Source: Escherichia phage NHEP11. Taken from it: a stretch of DNA of 64,000 nucleotides. Shown here one piece after another: positions 5,749 through 7,145 of this stretch. Each line of letters starts with the position of its first letter. Within the stretch, counting starts at the first letter, position 1. A program made the translations under genes and the position numbers. The notes under the pieces are model-generated. The model worked only from the letters and a program-made list of their open reading frames with translations. It searched no databases and had not been told where the DNA came from. The stretch lies in the sequence record PQ511149.1; one strand, written 5' to 3'.

Positions 5749-5988
5749 TTATTTGAATTTCTTAGCGATGTTGATATAACGTAGAGCTTCGGCATCAATA
5801 CTTCCAAGGACACTATGAATGAATGCGTCGGCATAGTATTCTAGTTGAACAGGTTCTTTAATCGCTTTAGCCGCTTTAGTTTCAAACAGGCCCATAAGGG
5901 CCTTTTTAAGAATTTGTTCGTTGCTGTTAATTTTAATAGTCAAAATCTCTTCATTAAGTTGGTGGTTAAAAGTTTTTCTAGAAATCAT
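5749..5988 (-). CDS. hypothetical protein
   Basis: 79 aa; ATG overlaps the upstream stop (ATGA); not hydrophobic, so unlikely to be an Imm equivalent. Confidence 0.45.
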   Translation of the reverse strand: MISRKTFNHQLNEEILTIKINSNEQILKKALMGLFETKAAKAIKEPVQLEYYADAFIHSVLGSIDAEALRYINIAKKFK

Positions 5989-7145
5989 TCTGGGTACCTC
6001 AAAGCGTCGTCAGAGTTAGTTATATCAATAATAGATATAGAATTTTCTGATAACCCATTTTTAGATAACTGACGTTTATAATATCTTTCACAATATGTAC
6101 ACGTCGTCCCACAGATTTCATTAGCACAATCGAAATCTGGATGTCTGAACCACCTTTTTTCTAAAAAGCCGTCTAACAAAGAGGTTTCAATATTTACCGT
6201 ATGTGAAAACTCAGTCTCATTTTCAAGAGTGAAAATAGTCTCTAAAGGCTTCCACAGTTCTAACAAATTACCTTCAAACTTTTCAGAAGCGTATGCTTCA
6301 AGAACTTTCAAAATGTAGTCGGTGCTACCTGTACGTCCTGAAACTTTGAATTGAGTGATACCAATATCATTATAAAGTTTCAAATCTTGAGGACGAACAA
6401 AACGAGTTCTCAGCCAGTTAAATGGGTCTGTATCACGAGCTTTAATACAGTGCTGCATTGGATATCCATTTAAGGATTTAGCATCATCAGCTGTAACATC
6501 AGTACTATGGAAAATATAGCAAGAGTCACGATAGCTACAATGTGTTGTATACCCTTTACCAGCATTAGAACAGAACTCATTTACAAGAACTTCAAATATT
6601 ATATTGTTCTTATTGCAAAACTCTGCTGCACGCTTCAGGAAAGAAACTGAACGGTTCTTATGAATTCCGCAGCAGACCTTTTTGATGTTATATTGGTCAT
6701 GTAAGTATTTGATTTGAGTTACCGCATCGACATGTAGAATTGTTGAAACTTCAATCTCAATGTCTTTATTGACTTCACGAACAATTTCCATAACAACAGG
6801 GTTAGCGATAGTAATACGCCATACGCCTATTGACCAAAGATACTGAACATAATCCTGAATAGCTTTCTTCTTCCACTCAACTAGTTCTCTTTTTGAACCG
6901 GGATTTATCGTGTTGAGTGTATAGTTAAAGCAAATACCTAATTCGTTACAACGTTTAACGTAATCTTCTAACATCTTTTTGTCAACGTCAGGAAGCCTAA
7001 AATCAGGTCTGGCTGCTACAAAAGCCATTTCTCTTGTAGAGCCATATACTTCGTTTATCAAGCTATTAGGATAAGTTTTATTGAGCTCTACGATTTTATC
7101 AAGAAGAGCTAAATCAAAATTCGTTCCGATTTTAAAAGTATTCAT
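5985..7145 (-). CDS. Cys-rich protein, possibly peptidase-U32-like Fe-S enzyme
   Basis: About 386 aa from the ATG at 7145 (track start at 7160 is GTG with no SD); clustered cysteines (NEFCSNAGKGYTTHCSYRDSC; DFDCANEICGTTCTYC); weak U32-signature resemblance. Confidence 0.5.
   Translation of the reverse strand: MNTFKIGTNFDLALLDKIVELNKTYPNSLINEVYGSTREMAFVAARPDFRLPDVDKKMLEDYVKRCNELGICFNYTLNTINPGSKRELVEWKKKAIQDYVQYLWSIGVWRITIANPVVMEIVREVNKDIEIEVSTILHVDAVTQIKYLHDQYNIKKVCCGIHKNRSVSFLKRAAEFCNKNNIIFEVLVNEFCSNAGKGYTTHCSYRDSCYIFHSTDVTADDAKSLNGYPMQHCIKARDTDPFNWLRTRFVRPQDLKLYNDIGITQFKVSGRTGSTDYILKVLEAYASEKFEGNLLELWKPLETIFTLENETEFSHTVNIETSLLDGFLEKRWFRHPDFDCANEICGTTCTYCERYYKRQLSKNGLSENSISIIDITNSDDALRYPE

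Follow-up and report, generated by a model that had tools for sequence, protein, structure and literature searches.

A U32-family protein of Escherichia phage NHEP11 as a proposed oxygen-independent route to 5-hydroxycytosine in phage DNA

Introduction

The gene considered here lies at 5985..7145 on the minus strand of a 64,000-nucleotide stretch of Escherichia phage NHEP11 (PQ511149.1; the whole stretch is referred to as the window) and encodes a protein of the peptidase U32 family within a cluster of DNA-modification genes. The closest described system is that of phage RB69, the DNA of which bears mono- and di-arabinosylated 5-hydroxycytosine (5hoC) and no hydroxymethylcytosine derivative (Lee et al., NAR 2026, PMC13326640). 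RB69 gp48, a thymidylate synthase (TS) homolog, makes 5-hydroxy-deoxycytidine monophosphate (5-hydroxy-dCMP) in a reaction dependent on flavin mononucleotide (FMN) and O2, with the flavin bound by the protein and the oxygen derived from O2 according to 18O2 labelling (PMC13326640). RB69 also encodes a dCTPase, and a complete route to UDP-arabinose has been proposed that does not involve RB69p050, the ortholog of the NHEP11 gene (PMC13326640). Acinetobacter phage DLP3, which has no U32 gene, makes tri-arabinosyl-5hoC (PMC13326640), and arabinosyl-5-hydroxycytosine is common to phages with U32 (RB69, LC53) and without it (DLP3). RB69p050 itself appears in that study only as a table row ('sugar or heterocycle reductase', fold match 5d88), without experiment or discussion (PMC13326640).

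Among cellular U32 proteins, the hydroxylations that depend on RlhA and TrhP have been found to need prephenate (PMC5727448, PMC6599085), and in the UbiU/UbiV pathway 18O labelling identified prephenate as the oxygen donor (PMC10990095). TH1_065 was modelled in the Thanatos paper without comment, and a phage transposon sequencing (Tn-seq) preprint holds no essentiality data for the U32 gene in Bas46.

The 5hoC pathway has been known since 2026, and its hydroxylase needs O2, yet the phages infect gut bacteria, replace all of their cytosine and destroy deoxycytidine triphosphate (dCTP); with a dCTPase and an O2-requiring synthase, such a phage would therefore be left without a cytosine substitute in an oxygen-free host. 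The T4-type hydroxymethylase has no O2 requirement, so this oxygen problem is specific to 5hoC phages. We consider it fairly probable that the U32 protein is a prephenate-dependent, O2-independent C5 hydroxylase providing an anaerobic route to 5-hydroxy-dC. That the protein belongs to the DNA-modification pathway and acts there as a U32 hydroxylase dependent on prephenate is a broader claim, held with greater confidence.

The U32 protein and its conserved cysteines

The window belongs to a T4-like phage of the genus Mosigvirus, and its region 3400–10200 shares 97.9% identity with RB69 and 98.3% with phage TU01. The open reading frame (ORF) of the U32 protein runs on the minus strand from an ATG at 7145 to its end at 5985 and encodes 386 amino acids (aa). 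Read mechanically, the ORF reaches a GTG at 7160 (391 aa); the orthologs begin at MNTFK, i.e., at the ATG. The RB69 ortholog, gp50 (RB69p050), is annotated as 'peptidase', and amino-acid identity among Mosigviruses is at least 99%.

Cysteine makes up 3.4% of the protein (13 residues); over the 52 ORFs of the window that have 150 aa or more the median is 1.07%, and among these only NrdG is richer in Cys. The original prediction, made from the letters of the DNA alone, had drawn attention to a Cys-rich 386-aa product with clustered cysteines, and the ORF was found to be real and its cysteines to fall largely into two groups. These are a core group (C158, C177, C192, C203, C209, and C233) and a C-terminal CX4CX3CX2C motif (C340, C345, C349, and C352). 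In an alignment of 121 homologs, down to 47% identity, nine of these positions (C158, C192, C203, C209, C233, C340, C345, C349, and C352) do not vary, and C177 is kept in 98% of the sequences. R46, R50, R206, R237, R251, K267, and R271 are invariant as well.

The Pfam model PF01136 (peptidase U32) was matched over residues 94–286 with 42.2 bits (E 7.3e-11; gathering cutoff 22.4), and the same assignment is precomputed for nearly all homologs. The single NCBIfam match was to UbiU, with a score of 18.5 bits where the cutoff is 440, and none of the curated NCBIfam equivalog models for UbiU, UbiV, TrhP, and RlhA was matched by the phage protein. As no curated UbiU, TrhP or RlhA group takes it in, the phage protein is a member of a distinct U32 subfamily.

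Fold, conserved residues and candidate metal ligands

An AlphaFold2 model built from a 99-sequence alignment had a mean predicted local distance difference test (pLDDT) score of 93.4 and a predicted template modelling (pTM) score of 0.91. Its N-terminal part forms the start of a beta/alpha barrel, as had been suspected from the sequence pattern, and the whole is a TIM-barrel fold resembling the solved U32 structure Mk0906. Structure prediction had been named beforehand as the check on the assignment, and examination of the model revealed no GT-A or GT-B glycosyltransferase fold or other non-U32 fold. A search of the PDB with the protein sequence gave no match, and the family profile gave only a spurious match to BIM1.

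When aligned with E. coli UbiU, UbiV, TrhP, and RlhA (sequences from MG1655), residues E185, C203, and C209 corresponded to E162/C170/C177 of TrhP and E161/C169/C176 of RlhA. Mutagenesis of TrhP and RlhA has shown that this Glu and the two Cys are essential to the formation of ho5U34 and ho5C2501 (PMC6599085). Among the 121 phage homologs, position 185 is Glu in 116 and Asp in the others, while C203 and C209 occur in all 121. The spacing of the pair is CX5C, vs. CX6C in TrhP and RlhA, a 10-residue insertion before C203 carries C192, and 'CYIFHS' of the phage protein aligns with 'CYISHA' of RlhA. Given these residues, the Pfam score well above its cutoff and the confident barrel model, the U32 assignment, which the original prediction had called weak, is firm.

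Of the [4Fe-4S] ligands, numbers 1 and 2 align (C203 and C209), and the loop which carries ligands 3 and 4 in UbiU, TrhP, and RlhA is absent. The family-specific invariant residues C192 and C233 are candidate replacements for ligands 3 and 4. Conservation of the C-terminal CX4CX3CX2C motif suggests a second metal site at C340/C345/C349/C352, and the phage protein is probably an iron-sulfur (Fe-S) protein.

Chorismate mutase genes beside U32

Chorismate mutase yields prephenate. In GenBank records of the sister genera the gene adjoining U32 is annotated as a chorismate mutase. When small ORFs between the U32 and TS-homolog genes were searched against Pfam, ten loci had a CM_2 domain scoring above the 27-bit cutoff, namely those of Winklervirus LC53 (44.6 bits), Kanagawavirus Entb_45 (40.9 bits) and PEi26 (42.0 bits), Shewanella phage Thanatos-2 (32.8 bits), Tegunavirus TG1, a Yersinia phage (36.0 bits), Mosugukvirus PM2 (38.3 bits), Bragavirus phiP4-3 (43.4 bits), Gualtarvirus PSTRCR_127 (46.1 bits), Kagamiyamavirus EcS1 (46.2 bits), and Marfavirus F48 (39.5 bits). 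KLB31 has an annotated chorismate mutase in the same position, and such a gene adjoins U32 in 13 of 15 T4-like loci in IMG/VR.

The phage mutases (profile of 11) conserve R8, R25, K36, E49, S71, and Q75, which correspond to the AroQ catalytic residues in the structure of EcCM. The mutase gene frequently overlaps the U32 stop codon by 4 nt, and the two genes are kept together despite rearrangement of the cluster, e.g., in Thanatos-2. Dhakavirus JS98 has a 5hoC-type cluster, but both U32 and the chorismate mutase are absent from it. The recurrent adjacency of the mutase strongly backs a hydroxylase role for U32.

Two Klebsiella phages show variant arrangements. In phage Clarke_MM3, which has U32, the annotation shows no ORF between the U32 and synthase genes, and a further one (L025) is without the mutase and gave no SIS isomerase match within ±10 kb.

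Occurrence among isolate phages and host oxygen physiology

Within the GenBank phage records, the TS-type synthase was found in 373 and U32 in 221. Tallied by the first word of the organism name, counts which are not phylogenetically independent, U32 records relative to synthase records stood at 0/57 for Acinetobacter and 0/20 for Rhizobium, as against 26/26 for Klebsiella, 7/7 for Proteus, 6/6 for Yersinia, and 136/176 for Escherichia. U32 is thus absent from Acinetobacter and Rhizobium phages that possess the O2-dependent synthase, and the same is the case for those of Pseudomonas. The clusters of Acinetobacter phage AbTZA1 and Pseudomonas phage PspYZU05 have the same gene order, with nothing in the slot between phosphatase and synthase.

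The window also encodes the anaerobic ribonucleotide reductase NrdD (24924..26741, minus strand; Pfam NRDD, 565 bits) and its radical-SAM (S-adenosylmethionine) activase NrdG (24460..24927, minus strand), the most Cys-rich of the window ORFs, and the phage is therefore equipped for anoxic synthesis of deoxynucleoside triphosphates. NrdD is common in phages of facultative anaerobes among the ten commonest host names, which as a positive control is suggestive only.

A distant clade associated with anaerobes

Hundreds of metagenomic proteins are 48–58% identical to the U32 protein of the window. No relative in this range was found among 50,697 GenBank phage records, where every match was at least 80% identical. 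IMG/VR yielded 33 loci with distant U32 genes, forming 25 groups, and many of the contigs are 120–290 kb and encode a PolIII-alpha type replicase. Homologs of the gp46:47 arabinosyltransferase recur within ±10 kb of U32, the span covered by the neighbourhood search, and often lie directly upstream of it; AfhE-like kinase/pyrophosphorylase, SIS isomerase, Tmk-like kinases, dCMP deaminase, and dUTPase genes recur likewise. A TS-type synthase was detected in one of 37 distant loci, and weakly (2e-5), vs. all 15 T4-like control loci at E ≤ 1e-112.

Genes related to prephenate supply are also found in this clade. A standalone CM_2 gene directly after U32 was confirmed by Pfam in four loci (L056, L059, L072, and L078), and the same standalone mutase ORF was found by phmmer in five others (L061, L062, L065, L067, and L077). 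Fusions of 3-deoxy-D-arabino-heptulosonate 7-phosphate (DAHP) synthase with CM_2 lie near U32 in L050, L053, L054, L064, and L075 (Pfam) and in L052 (both domains by phmmer), and DAHP synthase alone is near U32 in L038 (Pfam) and L003 (precomputed Pfam match and phmmer).

The genomes and metagenome-assembled genomes with U32 relatives are almost all those of obligate anaerobes (Erysipelotrichales, Oscillospiraceae, Romboutsia, Lachnospiraceae, Tannerella, Phocaeicola, and Clostridia). The tier at 27–32% identity is likewise almost wholly from obligate anaerobes, including Ruminiclostridium, Cellulosilyticum, Eubacterium, and Desulfobacteraceae.

Other contexts of U32 relatives were encountered. 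Relatives of 44–49% identity occur in a third context (L004:7135-11098, L005:330-4293, and L083:3044-7137) in the order GP88, a SAM methyltransferase (in some cases preceded by guanylate kinase), a protein of ~265 aa and U32; a hydroxylase beside a methyltransferase could make a 5-methoxy pyrimidine. In L004 and L005, U32 is followed by NT5C, a nicotinamide mononucleotide (NMN) transporter, deoxynucleoside kinase (dNK), a radical SAM/SPASM protein, a second faint U32, and nucleoside deoxyribosyltransferase. In Ruminiclostridium papyrosolvens C7 (L093:3369-12855) a relative of 29–30% identity (Pfam 40.6 bits) is located between two nonribosomal peptide synthetase modules, with a B12-binding radical SAM enzyme upstream, an arrangement which suggests an anaerobic tailoring hydroxylase in natural-product synthesis. 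On a megaphage-sized metagenomic contig of 466 kb (L002:9447-11086) a dCMP deaminase gene and the start of U32 share 4 nt, in a neighbourhood with MazG, radical SAM/SPASM, Tmk, uracil-DNA glycosylase, and PolIII-alpha genes; in phages of this type uracil, and not cytosine, could be the base that is hydroxylated.

Proposed function and alternatives

It is proposed that the U32 TIM-barrel enzyme would hydroxylate C5 of a cytosine nucleotide, most likely dCMP, with the oxygen atom drawn from prephenate instead of O2, as has been proposed for RlhA, TrhP, and UbiU/UbiV. Without oxygen it would do the work of the FMN/O2-dependent 5-hydroxy-dCMP synthase encoded nearby, and the later steps, namely phosphorylation of the product, incorporation by the polymerase and arabinosylation, would be shared with the aerobic route. 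dCMP appears the most plausible substrate since dCTP is destroyed, and the neighbours in the distant clade (Tmk-like kinases, dCMP deaminase, dUTPase, NT5C, and dNK) indicate the nucleotide pool. Most sister genera bring their own chorismate mutase; Mosigviruses, having none, would have to rely on host prephenate, supplied by PheA/TyrA.

An anaerobic hydroxylase of this kind would account for three observations. These are that gp48 alone suffices in aerobic heterologous assays, that the base chemistry is the same with and without U32, and that phages of strict aerobes are without U32.

Several points weigh against this proposal. No chorismate mutase lies beside U32 in the genus of the window itself, Mosigvirus, and a local hidden Markov model scan of the whole 64-kb window found none. 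About one-fifth of enterobacterial records with the TS-type synthase are without U32 (e.g., Dhakavirus JS98), and coliphages of the JS98 type imply that U32 is not obligatory in facultative-anaerobe hosts; the host tallies carry the phylogenetic dependence already stated. Of the four canonical 4Fe-4S ligands only two have aligned counterparts, so that C192 and C233 would have to supply the rest. In vitro reconstitution has never been achieved with any U32 hydroxylase (PMC10990095), and the label given to the RB69 ortholog by Lee et al. names a reductase (PMC13326640). There is also a caveat on novelty. A literature search found no paper linking U32 to arabinosylating phages and none combining chorismate mutase, phage and hydroxycytosine, but He et al. 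2026 (Nat Chem Biol) and Mahler et al. 2025 may address the gene.

The original prediction had taken the gene neighbouring U32 for a pyrimidine hydroxymethylase and had envisaged an extra modification step. The RB69 ortholog of that neighbour, gp48, is the 5-hydroxy-dCMP synthase (PMC13326640). Because the neighbour is itself an O2-dependent cytosine C5 hydroxylase, and the base chemistry is equal with and without U32, an extra step is less likely than an alternative route to 5hoC. In its general form, in which a U32 hydroxylase acts on another substrate of the pathway (the sugar, a second base position or a minor fraction of the bases) to give an extra or conditional modification, this explanation is unlikely, even though it draws on the same family and chorismate mutase evidence and agrees with the location of U32 inside the modification cluster. 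The DNA structures of RB69 and DLP3 share arabinosyl-5-hydroxycytosine with no further hydroxyl reported, and in the distant clade U32 occurs instead of the TS-type hydroxylase, not together with it.

Slightly less probable again is a TIM-barrel enzyme of sugar-nucleotide metabolism, i.e., a 'sugar or heterocycle reductase' or an epimerase and not a hydroxylase, which would aid synthesis of the arabinose donor. The UDP-arabinose route is complete without the U32 protein, and DLP3, AbTZA1, PspYZU05, and JS98 manage without it; moreover, the Glu/Cys motif specific to U32 is conserved, and the recurrent chorismate mutase and DAHP synthase neighbours would be left unexplained.

Every characterised nucleic-acid U32 enzyme acts on RNA, and the phage protein might in the same way hydroxylate host or phage tRNA (U34) or 23S rRNA (C2501), as TrhP and RlhA do, and tune translation during infection. 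This is quite improbable, given that the gene is confined to phages with a 5hoC-type cluster (the GenBank matches all being orthologs of at least 80% identity), that it always lies within the modification cluster in two unrelated phage lineages, and that the protein has 386 aa vs. 653 aa for RlhA and gave no NCBIfam match to TrhP or RlhA. That it is a true collagenase-like peptidase, as suggested by the family's historical name and by the 'peptidase' and 'collagenase' annotations in GenBank, is highly improbable, since no catalytic peptidase residues are defined for U32, its characterised members are hydroxylation factors and the genomic context is one of nucleotide and DNA modification.

Organisation of the modification cluster

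Every gene from the DNA polymerase (10131..12842) to UvsX (2270..3442) is on the minus strand. Upstream of U32 in the direction of transcription are genes for a SIS-domain arabinose-5-phosphate isomerase (9455..10090; RB69 gp55; Pfam SIS, 41.9 bits; PHROG 5670), an AfhE-like bifunctional sugar kinase/nucleotidyltransferase of 561 aa (7588..9273; RB69 gp52:53; Pfam NTP_transferase and kinase-like matches; PMC13326640), and an AfhF-like HAD-type phosphatase (7202..7603; RB69 gp51; PHROG 1238; PMC13326640). Downstream are the 79-aa gp49-like ORF (5749..5988), the TS homolog (4991..5707), the ortholog of RB69 gp48 (Pfam Thymidylat_synt, 57.1 bits; 97.5–99.6% identity with the compared Mosigvirus homologs), a 299-aa DNA arabinosyltransferase 1 (4092..4991; RB69 gp46:47, from synteny with RB69 and Table 1 of PMC13326640), and a thymidylate-kinase-like nucleotide kinase (3542..4090; RB69 gp45; PHROG 761, thymidylate kinase, E 2.2e-45; PMC13326640 Table 1). 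The ORFs at 4092..4991 and 7588..9273 are single and intact here, while each is split in the RB69 reference record (ORF046/047 and 052/053), splits which Lee et al. ascribed to sequencing errors (PMC13326640).

A sigma-70-like match at 7228..7201 on the minus strand (TTTAAA, 16-nt spacer, TATAAT, 10/12) ends 56 nt upstream of the U32 start codon. A scan of the region for promoters and terminators gave matches no commoner than expected by chance from shuffled sequence.

The 79-aa ORF (PHROG 8601, function not assigned) holds the slot occupied by the mutase in other genera, and its ATG overlaps the U32 stop codon (ATGA). It had no Pfam match, CM_2 included, even at E ≤ 10, and the idea that it is a diverged chorismate mutase was rejected after hhalign gave a probability of 0.17% against the profile of 11 phage mutases. 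It is homologous (45% identity) to the extra small ORF found between U32 and the mutase in Yersinia phage TG1, with weaker matches in Pectobacterium and Serratia 92A1 records. The ORF evolves far faster than U32, with 86–99% aa identity among Mosigviruses vs. at least 99%. In TU01, SSE1, and AV112 it was matched by tblastn as two pieces, which suggests a frameshift.

Significance

The chorismate mutase adjacency, the distant clade without the O2-dependent enzyme and the phyletic pattern among isolates are new evidence. It is, in our view, about as likely as not that the protein is a prephenate-dependent U32 hydroxylase, the first from a virus and the first with a deoxynucleotide as substrate, and that such an enzyme is the sole hydroxylase of a large uncultured clade of anaerobe phages. 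If the proposal is true, the U32 route would fill the oxygen gap for T4-like phages of facultative anaerobes, and hydroxylation from an organic oxygen donor, described for RNA and quinones, would extend to DNA precursors and to viruses. An oxygen-dependent host range would also be predicted for therapeutic phages, those with only the O2-dependent enzyme being expected to fail in anoxic niches, and the cluster variants of JS98, Clarke_MM3, and L025 are natural test cases for the anaerobic hypothesis. A soluble mononucleotide substrate, easier to handle than rRNA, tRNA or a prenylated lipid, could permit the first in vitro reconstitution of a U32 enzyme.

The distant clade suggests that many uncultured phages of anaerobes have hypermodified DNA, which matters for metagenomic sequencing and restriction-based methods. 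Were U32 the sole hydroxylase in this clade, linked as it is to the gut, the rumen and anaerobes, glycosylated 5-hydroxypyrimidine DNA would be widespread in anoxic viromes.

Comparison with known systems

RlhA (E. coli YdcP, the 23S rRNA 5-hydroxycytidine-2501 synthase), which requires prephenate and Fe-S biogenesis, is of the same Pfam family as the phage protein and shares with it the proposed hydroxylation of cytosine at C5. It differs in being a 653-aa protein that binds 50S precursors, in its substrate (rRNA vs. a presumed deoxynucleotide) and in its ligand positions 3 and 4, which are not conserved in the phage protein, while the C-terminal CX4CX3CX2C motif is specific to the phage family. 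Mk0906 of Methanopyrus kandleri (PDB 5d88), a U32 protein with no assigned function, has 11–14% identity with the phage protein and covers the barrel only, to which the phage protein adds ~100 C-terminal residues including the four-Cys motif.

The synthase gp48 of RB69, along with DLP3 gp80 and the HY126 homolog, is proposed to give the same product in the same pathway, from a gene two positions away from U32. It has an unrelated fold and cofactor and takes its oxygen from O2, and its function is proven, whereas that of U32 is inferred. A precedent for an aerobic/anaerobic pair at one step of DNA-precursor synthesis is given by NrdAB and NrdDG in T4-like phages, a well-established pair of different chemistry and hence an analogy only.

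The nearest parallels are TrhP/TrhO (tRNA ho5U34) and UbiU-UbiV vs. UbiI/H/F (ubiquinone), in which, as proposed for the phage pair, an O2-dependent hydroxylase and a prephenate-dependent U32 protein lead to one product. UbiI/H/F are flavin enzymes, and gp48 likewise binds flavin. These pairs occur in organisms which live with and without oxygen; the corresponding redundancy in the phage is predicted from its genes. Both cellular pairs are genomically unlinked, whereas the phage pair is found in one operon-like cluster, often with a dedicated chorismate mutase.

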